A DNA stretch of 64,000 nt. Origin: Chitinophagaceae bacterium. GTDB lineage: Bacteria > Bacteroidota > Bacteroidia > Chitinophagales > Chitinophagaceae. Positions within the stretch are counted from its first letter, which is position 1, and each line of letters opens with the position of its first letter. The stretch is taken from the NCBI GenBank assembly GCA_016699815.1, contig CP065012.1, positions 1,668,981-1,732,980 of the forward strand. Direction: 5' to 3'. Of the stretch, positions 10,735 to 30,780 are shown piece by piece. Both the position numbers and the translations under genes were made by a program. The notes under the pieces were generated by a model. It did not search any database and was not told where the DNA came from. It saw only the letters and a list, made by a program, of their open reading frames with translations.

Positions 10735-13218
10735 ATGAAGCTATTTTTTACTTTGTGTTTTGTGTGTTGCGCCCATTCATTATTTGCACAAAACCCGCCA
10801 ACTTATCCATCGTCTGAAATTTTTCACCGATTGCAAAAGCTGGAAGTTTTTGGAACGGTATTATATATTGCCGCACATCCCGATGATGAAAACACAAGGC
10901 TTTTATCATACCTGGAAAATGAAAGGAAATTACGCACTGCATATTTAAGTGTTACAAGGGGCGATGGCGGCCAAAACCTTATTGGTGATGAACAAGGTGT
11001 GGAGTTAGGATTGATTCGCACACAGGAATTACTTGCCGCTAGAAGGGTTGATGGTGCAGAACAATATTTTACCCGGGCATACGATTTTGGCTTTAGCAAA
11101 AGCCCGGAAGAAACTTTGGAAAAATGGGGACACGATAAAATACTTGCCGATGTGGTGTGGGTTATACGGAAACTTCAACCCGATGTAATTATAGCTCGCT
11201 TTCCTACAACCGGCGAAGGTGGCCACGGCCATCATACTGCTTCTGCAATACTTGCCGGCGAAGCATTTGATGCTGCTGCAGACAGTACAAAATTTCCCGA
11301 TCAATTTTCATATGGCGTTAAACCCTGGCAAGCAAAAAGGCTTTTGTGGAATTCATTCAACTGGACTGGAAGCAACAGCAACCGGCCGGGGCAATTTAAA
11401 ACCGACGTGGGAATGTACAACCCATTGCTGGGAAAAAGTTACGGCGAAATGGCTGCTCAAAGCCGCAGCCAGCACAAAAGCCAGGGCATGGGCTCTACAT
11501 TGCAAAGAGGTGAAATTTTTGAATATTTTCTTCCCATAAAGGGCGATAACCCTACTATAGATATTATGGAAGGCATTGATTTAGCCGCTTCAAGAATAAT
11601 GGATAAACCCTACAACGATTCTTTAAAAAAAATAATAAGGGAATACAATCCGCAGCAACCTCATTTATCGCTTCCCGGCCTGGTAAGCCTCAAAGAAAAT
11701 CTTTATAAAATACAAGGCAACAACAACCTGGTACAATATAAAATTTCCGAAATTGACAAGCTTATTGATGCCGTAAGCGGACTTTTTTTAGAAGCAACTG
11801 TTACCAACCAACTCAATGTTGTTGGTGATAGCCTGCGCTTTACTGTAACGTATAATAATAGAAACGGCTTGCCCGTGGAAAGCGCACTAGTAAGCATATT
11901 TGGAAAAACTATCCGGTTTGAAAACCTTTCTAAAAATACCAACAATGTTCAGCAATCTTCTGCTTTTGGTTTGAAAGAAACGCTGGTATCGCAACCATAC
12001 TGGATAGAATACCCTCTGCAGGGAGAAGCCTTTCAGGTTAAAAACCAGCAATTAATTGGATTGCCCGAAGCAGAAAACAATAATTTAAAGGCTTTGTTCC
12101 AGATACAGGTGAATGGAGAATTATTGACCTTTGACCGTAAAATAATGTACAAACATACCGACCCTGTAAAAGGAGAATTGTACCAGCCCGCCCAATTTGT
12201 TTATCCATTTTTTATTAATGCATCACCATCGCTGGTTTTACTTCGTAATGATGAAAGTATTCCCAAAAAAATTGCCATTACCATTCAGCCCAATATTTCT
12301 TTAAAAGAAAAAATAACGCTTTCTGCCTTTGTAAACAATCAACCCGAAAATTTTGAAGATACTGTATTGGATTTTACAAAAGGAGCAAGCAAAACTTTTC
12401 ACTTTACACTATATCCAAAAAAAATCAGTAATAACAGCACAGCTACTTTGGGTATGAAGTTATCTGCCCCTTCTCTTTATGAGGATCAAATGTATTCATT
12501 AAGAAAAATTGCTTACGACCATATCCCTGATATTTTTTACCACTATTACGACCAGGTAAAAATTGTAAAGCTGGATGTAAAAACCTCTGGTAAAACAATA
12601 GGCTATATTGCCGGAGCAGGCGATAAAGTGCCGCAGGCGCTGGAGCAATTGGGTTACACGGTAACTTTATTGCAGCAAAATGATATTACCCCAGAGCATT
12701 TACGAAAATTTGATGCAATAGTTACCGGTATACGGGCCTATAATGTAAATGCATGGATGCAAAATGTGTACGAGGTATTAATGAATTATGTAAAAACCGG
12801 TGGCGTGCTGCTGGTTCAGTACAATACCAATAATAATATAGGAAAAGTAACTACAAAAATATTTCCTTACAATTTCGAAATAAGCCGTACAAGGGTAACC
12901 GACGAAAATGCGAAAGTAAATTTTTTGCAACCCAAACATGCGCTACTTAATTACCCCAATAAAATTTCGGAAGCAGATTTTGACAACTGGATACAGGAAC
13001 GCAGCACTTACGAGGCGGAAAAAACAGGGGAAAATTTTCAGCATATTTTCAGCATGAGCGATGCCGGAGAAAAACAAAGTAATGGCAGCCTTATTGTGGC
13101 AGATTATGGCAAGGGAAGGCTTATCTATTGCGGGCTTTCTTTTTTCCGGCAATTGCCTGCAGGTGTGCCCGGGGCTTTTAGGCTTATGGCCAACCTGCTG
13201 GCAAGGCCCGTTAAATAA
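10735..13218 (+). CDS. Secreted PIG-L/LmbE-family de-N-acetylase with Ig-like middle and C-terminal class I GATase-like domain
   Basis: Signal peptide; AAHPDDE, TRGDGGQN, HGHH metal motifs; C-terminal IGYIAGAGDKVPQAL...GGVLLVQY...LSFFRQLPAGVPGA. Confidence 0.85.
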   Translation: MKLFFTLCFVCCAHSLFAQNPPTYPSSEIFHRLQKLEVFGTVLYIAAHPDDENTRLLSYLENERKLRTAYLSVTRGDGGQNLIGDEQGVELGLIRTQELLAARRVDGAEQYFTRAYDFGFSKSPEETLEKWGHDKILADVVWVIRKLQPDVIIARFPTTGEGGHGHHTASAILAGEAFDAAADSTKFPDQFSYGVKPWQAKRLLWNSFNWTGSNSNRPGQFKTDVGMYNPLLGKSYGEMAAQSRSQHKSQGMGSTLQRGEIFEYFLPIKGDNPTIDIMEGIDLAASRIMDKPYNDSLKKIIREYNPQQPHLSLPGLVSLKENLYKIQGNNNLVQYKISEIDKLIDAVSGLFLEATVTNQLNVVGDSLRFTVTYNNRNGLPVESALVSIFGKTIRFENLSKNTNNVQQSSAFGLKETLVSQPYWIEYPLQGEAFQVKNQQLIGLPEAENNNLKALFQIQVNGELLTFDRKIMYKHTDPVKGELYQPAQFVYPFFINASPSLVLLRNDESIPKKIAITIQPNISLKEKITLSAFVNNQPENFEDTVLDFTKGASKTFHFTLYPKKISNNSTATLGMKLSAPSLYEDQMYSLRKIAYDHIPDIFYHYYDQVKIVKLDVKTSGKTIGYIAGAGDKVPQALEQLGYTVTLLQQNDITPEHLRKFDAIVTGIRAYNVNAWMQNVYEVLMNYVKTGGVLLVQYNTNNNIGKVTTKIFPYNFEISRTRVTDENAKVNFLQPKHALLNYPNKISEADFDNWIQERSTYEAEKTGENFQHIFSMSDAGEKQSNGSLIVADYGKGRLIYCGLSFFRQLPAGVPGAFRLMANLLARPVK

Positions 13219-24975: not shown

Positions 24976-27825
24976 ATGCCCAAAAACAACGCAATTCAAT
25001 CGGTTTTAATTATTGGTAGCGGCCCTATTATTATTGGCCAGGCCTGTGAGTTTGATTACAGCGGATCGCAGGCGGCAAGGAGCCTAAGAGAAGAAGGAAT
25101 TAAAGTGATACTGATAAACAGCAACCCGGCCACTATCATGACCGATCCCATGATGGCCGACAAAGTTTATTTATTGCCGCTTACCGTTGAAAGCATCGAA
25201 CAAATTCTTGAAGAAAATAAAATAGATGCCGTTTTACCTACAATGGGTGGGCAAACGGCGCTTAATCTTTGTAAAGAAGCAGATGAACTGGGTATTTGGG
25301 AACGCTATAATGTACAATTGATAGGTGTAGATATTAAGGCAATTGATAAAGCAGAAGACCGGGAAAAATTCAGGCAGTGGATGATAGAAATGGAGATACC
25401 GGTTGCAATAGCAAGAACAGCCAACTCATTTTTAGAAGGTAAAGAATTTGCCCAGGAAATTGGGTTTCCATTAGTAATAAGGCCATCGTTTACCCTTGGT
25501 GGCACAGGCGGCGGTTTTGTAAAAGATAAAGAAGAGCTTGATGATGCATTAAACACCGGGCTTTCTGCATCACCCATACACGAAGTGCTGGTAGAGCAGG
25601 CTGTGCTGGGATGGAAGGAGTTTGAACTGGAACTGCTGAGAGATGCTGCAGATAATGTATGCATCATTTGCACTGTGGAAAATTTTGACCCAATGGGTGT
25701 ACATACCGGCGACAGTATTACCGTTGCGCCGGCTATGACGCTTAGCGATACCGCATTTCAACTGATGAGAAATACGGCTATTGCTATGATGCGGAACCTG
25801 GGAAATTTTGCCGGTGGGTGCAATGTTCAATTTGCCCTTAACCCGCAAACAGAAGAAATCATAGCTATAGAAATTAATCCACGGGTAAGCCGCTCCAGTG
25901 CATTGGCAAGCAAAGCCACCGGTTACCCAATTGCAAAAATTGCCGCAAAGCTGGCCATTGGTTACCACCTCGATGAACTAAAAAACCAAATTACCCAATT
26001 TACATCCGCATATTTTGAACCGGCTTTAGATTATGTAATTGTAAAAATCCCCCGCTGGAATTTTGATAAATTTAAAGGCGCCAATGATACGCTTGGCCTG
26101 CAAATGAAAAGTGTAGGTGAAGTAATGGGTATTGGAAGAAGTTTTGCCGAAGCCATTCAAAAAGCCTGTCAGAGCCTGGAAAACGAAGCCGTAGGATTGG
26201 GCTATTACGGCAAAAGCTTAATGCATAGCGAAGAGCTGATTGATTATATTAAAATTCCAAAATGGGACAGAATTTTTCGCATTAAAGATGCCCTGATGGC
26301 CGGCGCCAGTGTAAAACGCATTTGCGAAAGCACCTTAATTGACCGCTGGTTTATTTATCAAATACAAGATATATGCGATTGCGAAAGAGAAATTGCAAAA
26401 TATAATTTTAAAACCCTGCCCGATGAAGTTTTAATAAAAGCCAAAAAACTCGGCTTTAGTGATGAGCAGGTAATGCGGATAATGAAGGAAGAAGATGCGT
26501 TGCAATTATATGAACGCCGTAAACGAATGGGGCTTACCAGGGTTTTTAAAATGGTAGATACCTGCAGCGCAGAGTTTGAAGCCAAAACTCCATATTTTTA
26601 TTCCAGCTTTGAAAACGGCTTGCGCTCATCGCAAAATACTGCCCTGGTTTCAAACGAATCTATAAATTCCGACAAGAAAAAAATTATTGTATTGGGCAGC
26701 GGCCCCAATCGTATTGGTCAGGGCATTGAGTTTGATTATTGTTGCGTACATGGTTTGCTGGCCTTAAAAGAGTGTGGCTACGAAGCCATAATGGTAAACT
26801 GCAACCCCGAAACCGTAAGTACCGATTTTGATATTGCCGACAAACTTTATTTTGAACCCGTTTTTTTAGAACATATACTGGAGATAGTTGAACACGAAAA
26901 ACCCGAAGGCGTAATTGTTCAGCTTGGCGGACAAACCGCATTAAAGCTGGCAAAAATTTTGCATGAACGTGGCATAAAAATCATTGGAACATCTTTTGAC
27001 AATATGGATATTGCCGAAGACCGTGGCCGCTTTAGCGACTTGCTTAAAAAATTAGGCATTCCCTACCCCAGATACGGCACGGCTTTTAATACCGATGAAG
27101 CCATTGAAATTGCACACCAGGTGGGTTACCCGGTTTTGGTAAGGCCCAGTTACGTATTAGGCGGGCAAAGAATGCGGATTGTATTGAATGATGAAGAATT
27201 GGAAAAAGGAGTGTTGAGTTTATTGAAGCATTTGCCCGGAAATAAAATATTAATTGATCATTTTTTGGATCGTTGCCAGGAAGCGGAAATTGATGCCATA
27301 TTCGATGGGGAAAATTTTCATGTAATGGGTGTTATGGAACACATAGAACCGGCAGGCATCCATAGCGGCGATAGCAATGCAGTATTGCCGCAATTCAACC
27401 TCTCTCCATTAATAGTACATACAATGGAAGAATATGCAGAAAAAATAGCAAGGGCCTTAAATATTTGTGGATTAATCAATATTCAATTTGCCATAAAAGA
27501 TGGAATGGTATATGTAATAGAAGCCAACCCAAGGGCAAGCCGCACCACGCCTTTTATTGCCAAAGCCTATCAAATACCTTATTTAAATATTGCTACTAAA
27601 GTAATGCTGGGTGCTGCAAAGCTTAATGATTTTACATTTACCAAAAACCTGAAAGGCTTTGCCATAAAAGAACCGGTTTTTTCTTTTAATAAATTTCCCG
27701 GCGTAAATAAAGAGCTTGGCCCCGAAATGAAAAGTACCGGCGAAGCCATTCGCTTTATAAAAGATTTAAGGGATCCTTACTTTCGTCAATTGTATAAGGA
27801 AAGAAGCATGCATTTAAGTAAATAA
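24976..27825 (+). CDS. carB: Carbamoyl-phosphate synthase large subunit (no C-terminal MGS domain)
   Basis: Duplicated ATP-grasp halves: GSGPIIIGQACEFDYSG, GSGPNRIGQGIEFDYC, RPSFTLGG, RPSYVLGG, GPEMKSTGE. Confidence 0.97.
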   Translation: MPKNNAIQSVLIIGSGPIIIGQACEFDYSGSQAARSLREEGIKVILINSNPATIMTDPMMADKVYLLPLTVESIEQILEENKIDAVLPTMGGQTALNLCKEADELGIWERYNVQLIGVDIKAIDKAEDREKFRQWMIEMEIPVAIARTANSFLEGKEFAQEIGFPLVIRPSFTLGGTGGGFVKDKEELDDALNTGLSASPIHEVLVEQAVLGWKEFELELLRDAADNVCIICTVENFDPMGVHTGDSITVAPAMTLSDTAFQLMRNTAIAMMRNLGNFAGGCNVQFALNPQTEEIIAIEINPRVSRSSALASKATGYPIAKIAAKLAIGYHLDELKNQITQFTSAYFEPALDYVIVKIPRWNFDKFKGANDTLGLQMKSVGEVMGIGRSFAEAIQKACQSLENEAVGLGYYGKSLMHSEELIDYIKIPKWDRIFRIKDALMAGASVKRICESTLIDRWFIYQIQDICDCEREIAKYNFKTLPDEVLIKAKKLGFSDEQVMRIMKEEDALQLYERRKRMGLTRVFKMVDTCSAEFEAKTPYFYSSFENGLRSSQNTALVSNESINSDKKKIIVLGSGPNRIGQGIEFDYCCVHGLLALKECGYEAIMVNCNPETVSTDFDIADKLYFEPVFLEHILEIVEHEKPEGVIVQLGGQTALKLAKILHERGIKIIGTSFDNMDIAEDRGRFSDLLKKLGIPYPRYGTAFNTDEAIEIAHQVGYPVLVRPSYVLGGQRMRIVLNDEELEKGVLSLLKHLPGNKILIDHFLDRCQEAEIDAIFDGENFHVMGVMEHIEPAGIHSGDSNAVLPQFNLSPLIVHTMEEYAEKIARALNICGLINIQFAIKDGMVYVIEANPRASRTTPFIAKAYQIPYLNIATKVMLGAAKLNDFTFTKNLKGFAIKEPVFSFNKFPGVNKELGPEMKSTGEAIRFIKDLRDPYFRQLYKERSMHLSK

Positions 27826-27835
27826 AAATTGTAAG

Positions 27836-28711
27836 TTAATTACTAAACCTTATGCCAATGGTATAAGGCCGCATATCCAGGCTGTGTTCATACATTGATT
27901 TTGGGCTGTACGAACCATAAAACTTAACCGGGCCTAGGCCCAATTCGCCAATATAGCTAAGTTTAAAACGCTCCATATCATAATCTCCTTTGTTGCGCTT
28001 TTTTCCACGTTCATCACTTTTTTGTTTGTTGCGCTGGCTGTACAAATAGCCTGCGCTTACGCCAAACGAAACACTTACGCCTTTGTTGATACTGTATTTA
28101 TTGCTGGCAAAATTTATCATTACTGGAATGGTAAGGTAATCTGCCGCAAGCTTGTTTTTGCTAAACGAAATTGAATCCCTGAAGATAAAAGGCGCATTGG
28201 TTTGCATACCGCCGCTGTAAGGTATAATGCCATCTTCACGGTAACTGATGGCAGATTTATAACGGTAATTATTAAGCTCCAGGCCAAAACCGTATTTCAA
28301 ATTCATATTCTTTTTTACCAAATGCAGGGTTTGCATAAAAAACCAAATATTTATATTGATGCTTTTGCCTGTACGCAATTTAAAATCGGGTGCGCCAAGT
28401 TTAGGGTTACCGGGCCTGCTTACCAAAAAAATCCCGGTATTGCTGTAATCTGTTTTATCGGTAAAATTTGAAAAACCAAAATCAATTACACCCCAGTTTG
28501 TGGTAGTGCGGTTATACGATGGGTATGATGGGCTCCTTCTTCCCAGCGTAATATTTACACTGTCGTTATCAAAATTTTTCCCTCTTTTAATAATTAATAT
28601 ATTACCCACTCTTATGGTGTCCCGTTTTACTGATGCGCTGCTGTCTGTTTGTGCCGATGCAGTAAAGAAAAAAAAGGCAAATAGGGTAGAAAATAAAAGT
28701 TTACGGTTCAT
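27836..28711 (-). CDS. Outer-membrane beta-barrel protein (Bacteroidota porin-like family)
   Basis: Sec signal MNRKLLFSTLFAFFFFTASA; alternating strands (LKYGFGLELNNY, VSVSFGVSAGYL, LSYIGELGLG); C-terminal YTIGIRF beta-signal. Confidence 0.8.
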   Translation of the reverse strand: MNRKLLFSTLFAFFFFTASAQTDSSASVKRDTIRVGNILIIKRGKNFDNDSVNITLGRRSPSYPSYNRTTTNWGVIDFGFSNFTDKTDYSNTGIFLVSRPGNPKLGAPDFKLRTGKSININIWFFMQTLHLVKKNMNLKYGFGLELNNYRYKSAISYREDGIIPYSGGMQTNAPFIFRDSISFSKNKLAADYLTIPVMINFASNKYSINKGVSVSFGVSAGYLYSQRNKQKSDERGKKRNKGDYDMERFKLSYIGELGLGPVKFYGSYSPKSMYEHSLDMRPYTIGIRFSN

Positions 28712-28745
28712 GGTTTTATTTTTTAATTGGTATGGTGTTTTTTAT

Positions 28746-29894
28746 TTAATTAGCGGCTATTTCAAAATTGGCAATTTTAAAAGATTTGCCGGTTTTAATG
28801 TTGGTTCTGCGCTCAACATTGCGCTTTAGTTTACGAAAGAAAACGCCTACTTTACTGCTCTTTACTTCATTTTCTTCCATCATTAATATTTTATCATTGT
28901 TGTTTTCTTCGGGTATTTCTTTAAAGATAGCCGCCTGGGCAAATTGTTCTTTTAAAGGGGTAATATTTTCATCAATAATATTTTTTGCGGCATTGCTGTT
29001 TACAATTGTGCCTTCATTTTTACCGGGTTGTATATTGGGTTCAACAGGCTTATTAAATGCAATTAACGCAGGTTCATTATTATTTTGGCTGCTTGGCGTA
29101 ATTTTTTGTTGTTGAATAAAATCCGGATGTTTTATTTTTCCCTGCTTTGTATTATTGGCAATAACCCTGTTGTTTACCGAAGTTGAAATTTTATTGTTAC
29201 TCACATTGAAACTGCTTTGTTCTATTACAGGTTCTGGCTTTGTACTGCTGTTATTATCGCCGGTAATTGCAGTATTTTCCTTTTTGTAAATTACCTGTGT
29301 ATTACTTTGCTTCGCTTGCGGTTTTGTATTATTGTTTTTTGAGCCTGAGTTGTTGTTATTTTGTACAAGCTCATTTTGTAGTTGTTTGTTAAATAGCCGG
29401 CCAGAATTTTTGATTTTTATACCCGCAAACAAACCTATGCCCAGCAATATGGCTGCTGCAGCCCAGCGTAAATATTTAAAGGAATATACCTTTGCCGCTT
29501 TGTGCCGGTATAAAACCGGTTTGTTATTAAATACATATTCATCGCCTGCCGCTAATTTTGTTTTTTTCAATAAAGCAAAGCTTGCAGCAATTTCTTTATC
29601 AAAACCAAGTAGCTTTGTTATTTCCTGGTTTAAATCGTCGCCTGCTTCGTTATCCAAATACAAGAGTAATTTTTCTTCCAGCGGCGAAATGTAGTCTTCT
29701 GCATTTACCAGTGTTGATTTATCAAAATGAAATTTTGCTGCTGGTAATTGCAGTTGTAAAATTTGAGAAAACTCTTCTTTCAAATCGGCGTTTTCTTCAA
29801 CAAATATTGCTACGGCTGTTTTTTCTGCATCCGAAAGTTCATTATCGGCATACAGCAAAAAAAAGCTTTCGTAATTATTGCGGTTAATTTCCAT
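28746..29894 (-). CDS. Membrane-anchored anti-sigma factor with duplicated anti-sigma-like domain and long disordered periplasmic linker
   Basis: N-terminal FLLYADNELS and LLLYLDNEAG repeats, a single TM (WAAAAILLGIGLFAGI), an Asn/Ser/Gln/Lys-rich linker; lies 4 nt downstream of an ECF sigma. Confidence 0.72.
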   Translation of the reverse strand: MEINRNNYESFFLLYADNELSDAEKTAVAIFVEENADLKEEFSQILQLQLPAAKFHFDKSTLVNAEDYISPLEEKLLLYLDNEAGDDLNQEITKLLGFDKEIAASFALLKKTKLAAGDEYVFNNKPVLYRHKAAKVYSFKYLRWAAAAILLGIGLFAGIKIKNSGRLFNKQLQNELVQNNNNSGSKNNNTKPQAKQSNTQVIYKKENTAITGDNNSSTKPEPVIEQSSFNVSNNKISTSVNNRVIANNTKQGKIKHPDFIQQQKITPSSQNNNEPALIAFNKPVEPNIQPGKNEGTIVNSNAAKNIIDENITPLKEQFAQAAIFKEIPEENNNDKILMMEENEVKSSKVGVFFRKLKRNVERRTNIKTGKSFKIANFEIAAN

Positions 29895-29898
29895 TTGG

Positions 29899-30381
29899 TT
29901 AAATAATGTTTTCTGTTTTTACAATATAGCTCCTCAGTTGCAGCCTTGCCCGGTGCAGGTACACTTTTACCTGGCTTTCATTTAGGTTCATTATCTCCCC
30001 AATTTCTGCATAATTGTATCCTTCATAATCTTTAAGCATTACCAGGCTCCTTTGCAACTCCGTAAGTTTGTTTAAAGCATGTTGTAATGCATCTTTTATA
30101 TGCTGCTGGCTGCTTGTACCCAGCGATTGTTCATTAAAGCTTTCTTTATGGCTTATCCTTTTCACTTTTCTAATATGGTCAATCATCTGGTTATAAGCAA
30201 TCGTAAATAAATAACTTTTGCTTTTATTCGTAATTACCTGGTGCCTGGTTACCCAAAGTTTTTCAAATGCCGTTTGAACAATATCTCTTGCATCTTCTTC
30301 ATGTTGCAGGTTTTTAACGATAAACCGGTACAGGTTATCTGCATATTGGTTTACACATTCGTTATATTCCCTTTCTGTCAT
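29899..30381 (-). CDS. ECF RNA polymerase sigma factor
   Basis: 160 aa; region 2 DIVQTAFEKLW...YLFTIAYNQMIDHIRK and region 4 LKDYEGYNYAEIGEIMNLNESQVKVYLHRAR. Confidence 0.93.
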   Translation of the reverse strand: MTEREYNECVNQYADNLYRFIVKNLQHEEDARDIVQTAFEKLWVTRHQVITNKSKSYLFTIAYNQMIDHIRKVKRISHKESFNEQSLGTSSQQHIKDALQHALNKLTELQRSLVMLKDYEGYNYAEIGEIMNLNESQVKVYLHRARLQLRSYIVKTENII

Positions 30382-30431
30382 AAAATAATTGGCCGGTAAA
30401 AATAATCCAGGTTCTACGTATTTATAGTTAT

Positions 30432-30456
30432 ACGATTGGTAAACCTTAAAAGTTAC
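30432..30456 (-). promoter_or_regulatory. Candidate ECF-type (autoregulatory) promoter
   Basis: Minus strand GTAAC-N17-CGT(ATA), matching the AAC/CGT pattern of ECF promoters, 50 nt before the sigma ATG. Confidence 0.45.
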
Positions 30457-30644
30457 AACTTAAAAATACCTTTTGTAATAAAATGCAATGGTGGATCGGC
30501 ATCGGGCAGGCATTTACTGCTGCAGTTTTGAACAGGTGTTTTTTCCACAGGAATAGCCTGTGGGCCGCTTTTTGATGATTGGTACCAAAAAAAGATAACG
30601 GCAAAAAAGAAGAGCAGAAACAATATTTTGCTGTTTTTACCCAT
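30453..30644 (-). CDS. Small single-TM protein (63 aa)
   Basis: MGKNSKILFLLFFFAVIFFWYQ...CSSKC...KGIFKL; basic N-terminus then a hydrophobic helix. Start placed at ATG 30644. Confidence 0.5.
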   Translation of the reverse strand: MGKNSKILFLLFFFAVIFFWYQSSKSGPQAIPVEKTPVQNCSSKCLPDADPPLHFITKGIFKL

Positions 30645-30780
30645 TGGGTTGTTAGTTGGCTTTGTAGCTATAACGAATATAAAGGTAAAAAGGTTACAGC
30701 CTTTTTCTGAAATGTTAAATAAAACGCAAATATGATGATTCAGAAAAGTGAAACTCAAAATTCAATAAGCTAATGTTCCT

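Follow-up and report, generated by a model that had tools for sequence, protein, structure and literature searches.

A conserved sigma factor, anti-sigma and outer-membrane barrel triad in Chitinophagaceae resembles a split trans-envelope signalling system

We describe a triad of genes for an extracytoplasmic function (ECF) sigma factor, a single-pass anti-sigma protein and an outer-membrane beta-barrel, located in a 64,000-nucleotide stretch of DNA from a Chitinophagaceae bacterium (contig CP065012.1, positions 1,668,981 to 1,732,980; referred to as the window). Judged by its nearest relatives and by the sequencing runs, the bacterium is probably Ferruginibacter-like and from activated sludge. 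The triad constitutes one conserved, co-transcribed and probably autoregulated unit, the dependence of its promoters on the encoded sigma factor being suggested by motif conservation. As a mechanism we tentatively favor a non-covalent coupling across the envelope, in which the C-terminal tip of the anti-sigma protein would be docked on the barrel and the operon would regulate itself.

All three genes lie on the minus strand in the order sigma factor (29899..30381, 160 aa, identified by its open reading frame and Pfam matches), anti-sigma (28746..29894, 382 aa) and barrel (27836..28711, 291 aa, with a PF13568 domain and a signal peptide). They are separated by only 4 nt (29895-29898) and 34 nt (28712-28745), respectively, so that the barrel gene starts 34 nt past the anti-sigma stop codon, in another reading frame.

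Conservation of the triad and of its split state

Synteny was counted in the best 80 loci, all from Chitinophagaceae and mostly from metagenome-assembled genomes of Ferruginibacter. The order sigma factor, anti-sigma, barrel on one strand was found in 69/69 species loci that contain at least ~2 kb of upstream DNA, the remaining loci being cut by contig ends. More distant metagenome loci with enough upstream DNA carry the anti-sigma gene next to the barrel in 49/49 and the sigma gene in 48/49 cases. These distant loci include a marine-type subfamily, where the barrel core is 27% and the anti-sigma head 9% identical to the window proteins (anti-sigma ~9-16%). The downstream neighbor is not kept, with carB present in 3/80 loci. 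Because the gene order extends into the highly divergent marine-type loci, the triad is, judged by its synteny, an old and stable unit and not a chance adjacency, and functional coupling of the three genes is strongly supported. Its distribution is broad: a pattern-limited scan with the barrel profile, using one genome per species, yielded at least 575 species with a relative, and a profile search of 1.84 billion representatives returned 1805 clusters (50% identity) at E<0.001.

In the Dma proteins of Bacteroidota, a barrel and an anti-sigma head share one chain, and an arrangement of this kind was searched for among relatives of the triad. No fused form was present in 230 anti-sigma-family matches (about 226-473 aa) or 91 marine-type anti-sigma relatives, all of them without PF13568, or among the 150 barrel representatives that matched best. 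Of the latter, the 18 longer ones (341-424 aa) all begin with a signal peptide and contain neither an anti-sigma head nor a transmembrane helix. Since no fused form occurs among these relatives, the split state is stable as far as their sequences tell. An initial annotation of the locus, made from the sequence alone, had called for a survey of fused versus split forms and had named absent linkage of the barrel gene among the grounds for giving up the idea of a coupled system; the survey found the triad kept, and in split form only (69/69 and 48/49 loci), with the barrel adjoining the anti-sigma gene in 118/118 informative loci.

A different arrangement was seen near a distant anti-sigma relative (P0475), where a gene for a 511-aa protein with DUF2807 and a weak OMP_b-brl_2 match (L161:5160-6695, plus strand) lies 1.2 kb downstream, past a GH130 gene on the opposite strand. 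The C-terminus of P0475 differs, and this locus may represent another barrel-linked variant.

The sigma factor and the anti-sigma head

The sigma factor matches the Pfam domains Sigma70_r2 (45 bits) and r4_2 (61 bits) as well as TIGR02937 (80.6 bits, cut-off 42.9). Among specific NCBIfam models, NF058625 (PG0214/GFO_1088 family) scores best, with 109 bits, and stays under the cut-off of 130. SigW and SigE are its nearest sequence relatives in the PDB. By domain content it is an ECF (sigma-70 group 4) factor, comprising regions 2 and 4 only within the size range of ~160-200 aa. Across ~110 close homologues, identity to the window protein is ~70%.

The anti-sigma protein starts with a cytoplasmic head (aa 1-115, 29550..29894, minus strand), which AlphaFold2 (AF2) models as two three-helix, anti-sigma-like units at residues 8-48 and 71-112, with a predicted local distance difference test (pLDDT) score of ~90. 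A corresponding repeat, NYExFFLLYxDNELS / LLLYxDNEL, is apparent in the family alignment. Of 44 family members, 27 match zf-HC2, all under the gathering score and with a best E of 1.7e-4, and no other family recurs among them; the window protein itself has no Pfam match above threshold (zf-HC2 E 0.16). The top Foldseek folds, ChrR, MucA and RsiW, are not significant (E 3.7-9), and 8 of the 15 Foldseek matches listed are chains of ECF sigma/anti-sigma complex structures. The H-x3-C-x2-C zinc site of the ZAS subgroup is missing, as the first 115 residues of the window protein include neither His nor Cys. Because the head has no zinc ligands, the middle protein is most probably a non-zinc, class-I-like anti-sigma.

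The transmembrane helix, tether and tip of the anti-sigma protein

The head is followed by a transmembrane helix predicted by AF2 (aa 140-163, 29406..29477, minus strand), whose cytoplasmic end carries the conserved Ala run RWAAAAILLG. Every sequence of the family alignment has A147 and A148, and an Ala run is found in the marine-type family too. Residues 167-333 (28896..29396, minus strand) form a disordered periplasmic tether (pLDDT ~33) rich in Asn, Lys, Gln and Ser (33, 17, 15 and 13 of 167 residues). The protein ends in a C-terminal tip (aa 334-382, 28749..28895, minus strand) composed of an acidic stretch, the basic amphipathic helix VGVFFRKLKRNVERR and the hairpin SFKIANFEIA. In the AF2 model the tip contains a helix at 341-364 (pLDDT 66-78) and strands forming a hairpin at 372-379. 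The net charge of the last 38 residues, counted from the sequence, is ~+9.

These regions evolve at different rates. Using the window protein as reference, identity across ~110 close homologues amounts to 47% in the tip, 41% in the head, 36% in the transmembrane region and 12% in the tether, yet the tether keeps a length of 162±14.5 aa (110 homologues). A length that is kept while the sequence is free to vary is as expected for a spacer. No other part of the anti-sigma protein is as well conserved as the tip. Because the tip is kept better than the head that holds the sigma factor, it seems to have a specific, slowly evolving partner, a pattern that fits a tether spanning the periplasm. The sole PDB sequence match of the anti-sigma profile aligns the tip helix (GGFFRKVKRxVER) with the E. 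coli FtsY segment EGFFARLKRSLLK at a non-significant E of 0.7. We take this segment to be the lipid-binding amphipathic helix of FtsY. The resemblance, a non-significant match, leaves a lipid-anchoring role for the tip alive.

Tandem repeats were seen in the linkers of two relatives. In P0111 (473 aa), ~100 aa are tandemly repeated inside the disordered linker, and the linker of the protein at L103:4293-5669 carries tandem NREQGM...SSGQPST repeats.

The barrel protein

The barrel protein has its own signal peptide (aa 1-21, 28649..28711, minus strand; predicted cleavage ASA|Q), with A20 and Q21 invariant in 45 homologues. A periplasmic N-terminal extension (aa 22-68, 28508..28648, minus strand) precedes the beta-barrel core of the OMP_b-brl_2 family (aa 69-291, 27839..28507, minus strand). 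PF13568 (OMP_b-brl_2) is matched with 33.5 bits at a gathering score of 27. The AF2 model has a mean pLDDT of 64 and ~8-10 strands, the count being ambiguous, and the nearest solved folds found by Foldseek are the small 8-stranded barrels OmpA, Ail, OmpX, OmpW and NspA. Score, signal peptide and fold assign the protein to the PF13568 barrels. The core is 63-87% identical to 120 relatives, with a family identity of 67% across the ~110 close homologues, and unusual conservation extends to its loops, for example SQRNKQKSDERGKKRNKGDYD. On these identities the conservation of the barrel, long loops included, by far exceeds that of typical surface proteins.

The N-terminal extension holds the hairpin motif DTIRVGNILIIKRGK (aa 31-45, 28577-28621, minus strand), which is 65% identical across the family, with D31, T32, R34, G36, I40 and K42 invariant in the alignment. 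The AF2 model places a hairpin at 31-42 with low confidence. In distant barrel relatives the motif is duplicated or swapped for other beta-rich or acidic modules: the L103 barrel (L103:5713-6675) carries two copies of it, and longer relatives (341-424 aa) carry 2-3 hairpin motifs or acidic coiled segments. The motif, DT[ILMV][RVK][IV]G near the mature N-terminus, resembles a TonB box at the equivalent position. For this comparison we take the TonB boxes of E. coli BtuB and FepA to be DTLVVTA and DTIVVTA, respectively.

The initial annotation is borne out in its description of the parts. It had listed three co-oriented genes spaced tightly, 4 and 34 nt apart, in agreement with the open reading frame coordinates; an ECF sigma factor as the first gene, identified here by the Sigma70_r2, r4_2 and TIGR02937 matches; an anti-sigma-like head, one transmembrane helix and an Asn/Ser/Gln/Lys-rich linker of ~170 aa, as found by AF2 and composition; an ordered basic C-terminal tip, seen here as helix, hairpin and positive charge; and a beta-barrel with its own signal peptide, matching the PF13568 assignment and the invariant A-Q site.

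Promoters and transcription

Two ECF-type promoter-like motifs precede the sigma gene on the minus strand. P1 (30431..30457) consists of TGTAAC (30457-30452), a 17-nt spacer and CGTA (30434-30431), its end lying 50 nt before the start codon of the sigma gene. P2 (30673..30698) consists of TGTAAC (30698-30693), a 17-nt spacer and CGT (30675-30673), and stands before a small open reading frame. In 120/122 loci, the 120 nt that precede the sigma gene contain the pattern GTAAC-N15-18-CGT, compared with a background of 0.0067 per 120 nt, and the family-wide consensus is cTGTAAC(T/A)TT-N-tCGTAT with a spacer of N16/17. Loci that carry the small open reading frame have a second motif at the P2 position.

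RNA data were taken from activated-sludge metatranscriptomes, as assembled contigs without strand information and with possible DNA carry-over. A 3207-nt contig (27449-30655) covers all genes of the cassette at a depth of ~28, compared with 0-6 on the kbl side. RNA contigs end at 30655 (runs X26, X27), downstream of P2, and at 30411 and 30424 (runs X25, X28), downstream of P1. These ends fit transcription starts at P1 and P2 and co-transcription of all genes.

The small open reading frame (30453..30644, minus strand, 63 aa) lies within the 3207-nt RNA contig and encodes a peptide with a hydrophobic, signal-like N-terminus, a Cys pair and the conserved C-terminus PLHFITKGIFKL. Pfam contains no match to it, and in 34/114 loci a homologue precedes the sigma gene. 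It may be an accessory fourth member of the cassette, a secreted or membrane peptide of the same regulon.

Two further matches to GTAAC-N16/17-CGTA in the window (10931-10955 and 12701-12725, minus strand) were rejected as promoters. They lie antisense within an 827-aa open reading frame (10735..13218), have no gene downstream and are probably chance occurrences (0.34 expected in the window). A search for other regulon members gave no enrichment, as the motif was seen 142 times elsewhere in 162 loci, compared with ~156 hand-estimated for random sequence.

Proposed coupling of tip and barrel

Evolutionary distances were compared between the parts of the triad. Pairwise distances of the tip correlate with those of the barrel core at r=0.71, similar to the head/sigma pair used as positive control (0.72). 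When sigma distances are accounted for, the partial correlation is 0.48 for tip and barrel, compared with 0.06 for head and barrel. The distance correlation is consistent with co-evolution of tip and barrel. Moreover, in both divergent subfamilies the anti-sigma protein still ends in a helix and strands, and the mature barrel protein still carries a beta-hairpin module at its N-terminus. The marine-type tip consists of a helix and three strands, and the marine-type barrel extension of a different hairpin followed by an acidic coil, both being replaced together.

A non-covalent coupling might operate as follows. At rest, the ECF sigma factor would be held at the inner membrane by the anti-sigma head, as family features suggest. 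The ~160-residue tether, of predicted structure and conserved length, would cross the periplasm, and the tip would bind the periplasmic face of the barrel, with the barrel N-terminal hairpin as the likeliest contact. Speculative triggers include absence or misassembly of the barrel, binding of a ligand to it, or its displacement away from the inner membrane. Loss or alteration of the contact would expose the tether to cutting by a site-1 protease, and a site-2 protease could then cut at the RWAAAAILLG Ala run at the start of the transmembrane helix, by analogy with RseA and RsiW. Once released, the sigma factor would transcribe from the TGTAAC-N16/17-CGTA promoters P1 and P2. Own-operon transcription would supply new anti-sigma protein and barrel and restore the off state, and induction could reset the system in this way because the operon encodes both.

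Several results weigh against such docking. Tip distances also track those of the sigma factor (partial r 0.48), and the mirror-tree signal may be a rate effect, with slow-evolving regions sharing a cleaner phylogenetic signal. Residue covariation, computed as mutual information with average product correction in 108 triples, peaked at 0.39 for tip and barrel, 0.40 for head and barrel and 0.58 for sigma factor and barrel, and was no higher for tip and barrel than for the negative or the head-sigma positive controls. Homology of the tip strand with the barrel hairpin was considered and rejected: compared with shuffled sequences, the profile scan had a median p of 0.43, and the C-terminal 13-mer of the anti-sigma protein was the best site in only ~24/69 sequences. 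AF2 confidence is modest in the relevant parts of the anti-sigma and barrel models. The divergent upstream kbl gene is kept in 58/80 loci, hence synteny could be partly inherited. Finally, the 289-aa anti-sigma proteins at L137:3200-4069 and L145:3919-4788 (plus strand) keep the basic helix and stop before the terminal strand, although their barrels retain the DTIRVGN hairpin motif. The 447-aa protein at L120:229-1572 (plus strand) has the same N-terminal head and, in place of tether and tip, a YkuD L,D-transpeptidase domain (PF03734, 34.9 bits), with the barrel still downstream after a 230-nt gap. Because L137 and L145 are devoid of the terminal strand and L120 carries YkuD, a contact between strand and hairpin is not universal.

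Some of these observations are shared by a reading in which the barrel is a mere output of the regulon, serving for instance envelope repair or permeability, and never touches the anti-sigma protein. The tip would then be anchored elsewhere, on phospholipid of the outer-membrane inner leaflet or on peptidoglycan, and a change in that surface would be the signal. This reading is possible, if rather unlikely. Third genes of ECF operons are frequently regulon members, and residue covariation carries no signal between tip and barrel. A lipid anchor would suit the alignment of the tip helix with FtsY EGFFARLKRSLLK, and the basic helix is the part of the tip that L137 and L145 retain after strand loss; a peptidoglycan anchor would suit L120, where the peptidoglycan-directed YkuD replaces tether and tip. 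The FtsY match is, however, far from significance. Three further observations argue that the barrel is more than an output: it adjoins the anti-sigma gene in every informative locus across divergent subfamilies while other neighbors vary, tip and barrel types switch together between subfamilies, and the tip-barrel distance correlation equals that of the head-sigma control.

It is unlikely that the barrel acts as a small receptor of Fec type, whose loops would bind an extracellular ligand and whose N-terminal strand would pair with the tip by beta-augmentation, this contact activating the sigma factor where docking would keep it off. The three-part logic would be that of FecA/FecR/FecI (PMC10927553). 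High conservation of the long barrel loops is unusual for surface loops and would agree with ligand binding, as would the TonB-box-like DT[ILMV][RVK][IV]G at TonB-box position and its repetition in longer relatives. This resemblance nevertheless spans just 5-7 residues, and the ambiguous barrel topology (8-10 strands) does not allow outward loops to be assigned. The triad moreover comes without plug, 22-strand barrel, STN or FecR domain, and no transport or catabolic genes are linked to it among the neighbor genes examined.

Less probable again is a non-covalent complex across both membranes, in which the C-terminal strand or strands of the anti-sigma protein would be built into, or clamped onto, the barrel sheet. 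Proteins of the Ferruginibacter type would contribute one hairpin, those of the marine type three strands. Such a complex would make the length-conserved tether a ruler or tension sensor of envelope spacing and barrel assembly.

That synteny was inherited without any coupling, the middle gene encoding no anti-sigma and the barrel being an unrelated housekeeping protein, is highly improbable: the window middle protein has no Pfam match above threshold, its anti-sigma fold matches are not significant and kbl is syntenic too, but zf-HC2 recurs in 27/44 members, 8 of the 15 listed fold matches stem from sigma/anti-sigma complexes, a single RNA contig runs across genes separated by gaps of 4 and 34 nt, and the triad survives at 27% barrel and 9% head identity. 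Docking of the tip on the barrel is the mechanism that we tentatively retain.

Genomic neighborhood

The triad is flanked by carB and by genes for an M23 peptidase, a kbl-like aminotransferase, a GT2-HAD protein and trigger factor. No TonB-dependent receptor was found among the flanking genes, in agreement with what had first been stated for this locus, and the window contains no second paralogous cassette. carB (plus strand) and the barrel gene (minus strand) are convergent, with stop codons 10 nt apart (window 27825-27836) and no terminator-like hairpin between them. The RNA contig extends ~390 nt into carB, and because it runs into this convergent gene, the carB and barrel transcripts probably overlap.

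Discussion

Single-chain anti-sigmas that span two membranes were first described in 2024, and no description of a split form of a Dma-type system was found in full-text literature searches. To our knowledge, no member of the split triad family has been studied so far. A split version separates the sensor barrel from the tether, so that each half can be deleted, tagged or titrated alone. It also offers a small interface, a tip of ~50 residues and the barrel N-terminal hairpin, and supplies a clean reporter in the TGTAAC-N17-CGTA promoter. Activated sludge, soil and sea water are all rich in the carrier lineages, Chitinophagaceae and marine Bacteroidia. If the contact between tip and barrel is true, cell-surface signalling would extend to small, TonB-independent barrels, and if the clamped form is true, a two-chain counterpart of Dma would exist in hundreds of environmental Bacteroidota species.

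In Dma, an anti-sigma head, a transmembrane helix, a disordered tether and a barrel are combined in one chain (PMC10927553, PMC13088901). Dma1 is annotated as OMP_b-brl_2 (PF13568), its barrel is 8-stranded, and C-terminal fragments measure ~17-20 kDa (PMC10927553). The triad resembles Dma in its occurrence in Bacteroidota, in the ECF sigma gene directly upstream, in the succession of head, one transmembrane helix and long disordered tether, in the PF13568-type barrel and in the proposed role of reporting the outer-membrane state to a sigma factor. Unlike in Dma, the barrel is made as an independent chain, signal peptide included, in each of ~120 loci, and the anti-sigma protein ends in a conserved helix-hairpin tip and has a duplicated head. 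A link to vesiculation, as regulated by the Dma anti-sigmas of Bacteroides thetaiotaomicron, would be speculative for the triad. The triad barrel is also larger than that of Dma1 (270 mature residues) and carries a conserved N-terminal periplasmic extension. Because barrel and anti-sigma do not share one polypeptide, here or in any of the relatives examined, the triad is not a member of the Dma family, though it may work like one. The initial proposal of a two-piece, Dma-like system is thereby upheld in part: the layout, the separate PF13568 barrel and the conserved tip and linker length speak for it, whereas covariation, being no better than in the controls, does not.

With FecA/FecR/FecI the triad shares three clustered parts, an ECF sigma factor, a single-pass regulator that crosses the periplasm and a barrel with a periplasmic N-terminal extension. 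It differs from Fec in that the periplasmic part of the regulator is disordered, save for the ~50-residue tip. Searches with Pfam and NCBIfam found none of the Fec domains (TonB-dependent receptor, plug, STN, FecR, DUF4974) in the three proteins or their neighbors. Judged by domain content, the triad is not a Fec-type system despite the common three-component logic.

The RseA/sigma-E system of E. coli offers an analogy, as the triad would share with it a single-pass anti-sigma, regulated proteolysis and an input from outer-membrane proteins, and the Ala-rich cytoplasmic end of the transmembrane helix could plausibly serve for site-2 cleavage or as a degron. RseA, however, has a folded periplasmic domain, and RseB and DegS sense the C-termini of unassembled porins in general, whereas the triad has one dedicated, co-encoded barrel and a tether as its periplasmic part. 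A resemblance to TonB is only a lead. TonB binds the TonB box by strand pairing, and the anti-sigma protein has a comparable build of N-terminal anchor, long periplasmic spacer and small C-terminal module, facing a TonB-box-like barrel motif. Unlike TonB, it lacks a TonB_C domain, a Pro-rich spacer and linkage to ExbBD, and its tip is only half as large as the C-terminal domain of TonB. Collectively, the triad looks like a widespread split version of trans-envelope ECF signalling that belongs to neither the Dma nor the Fec family.

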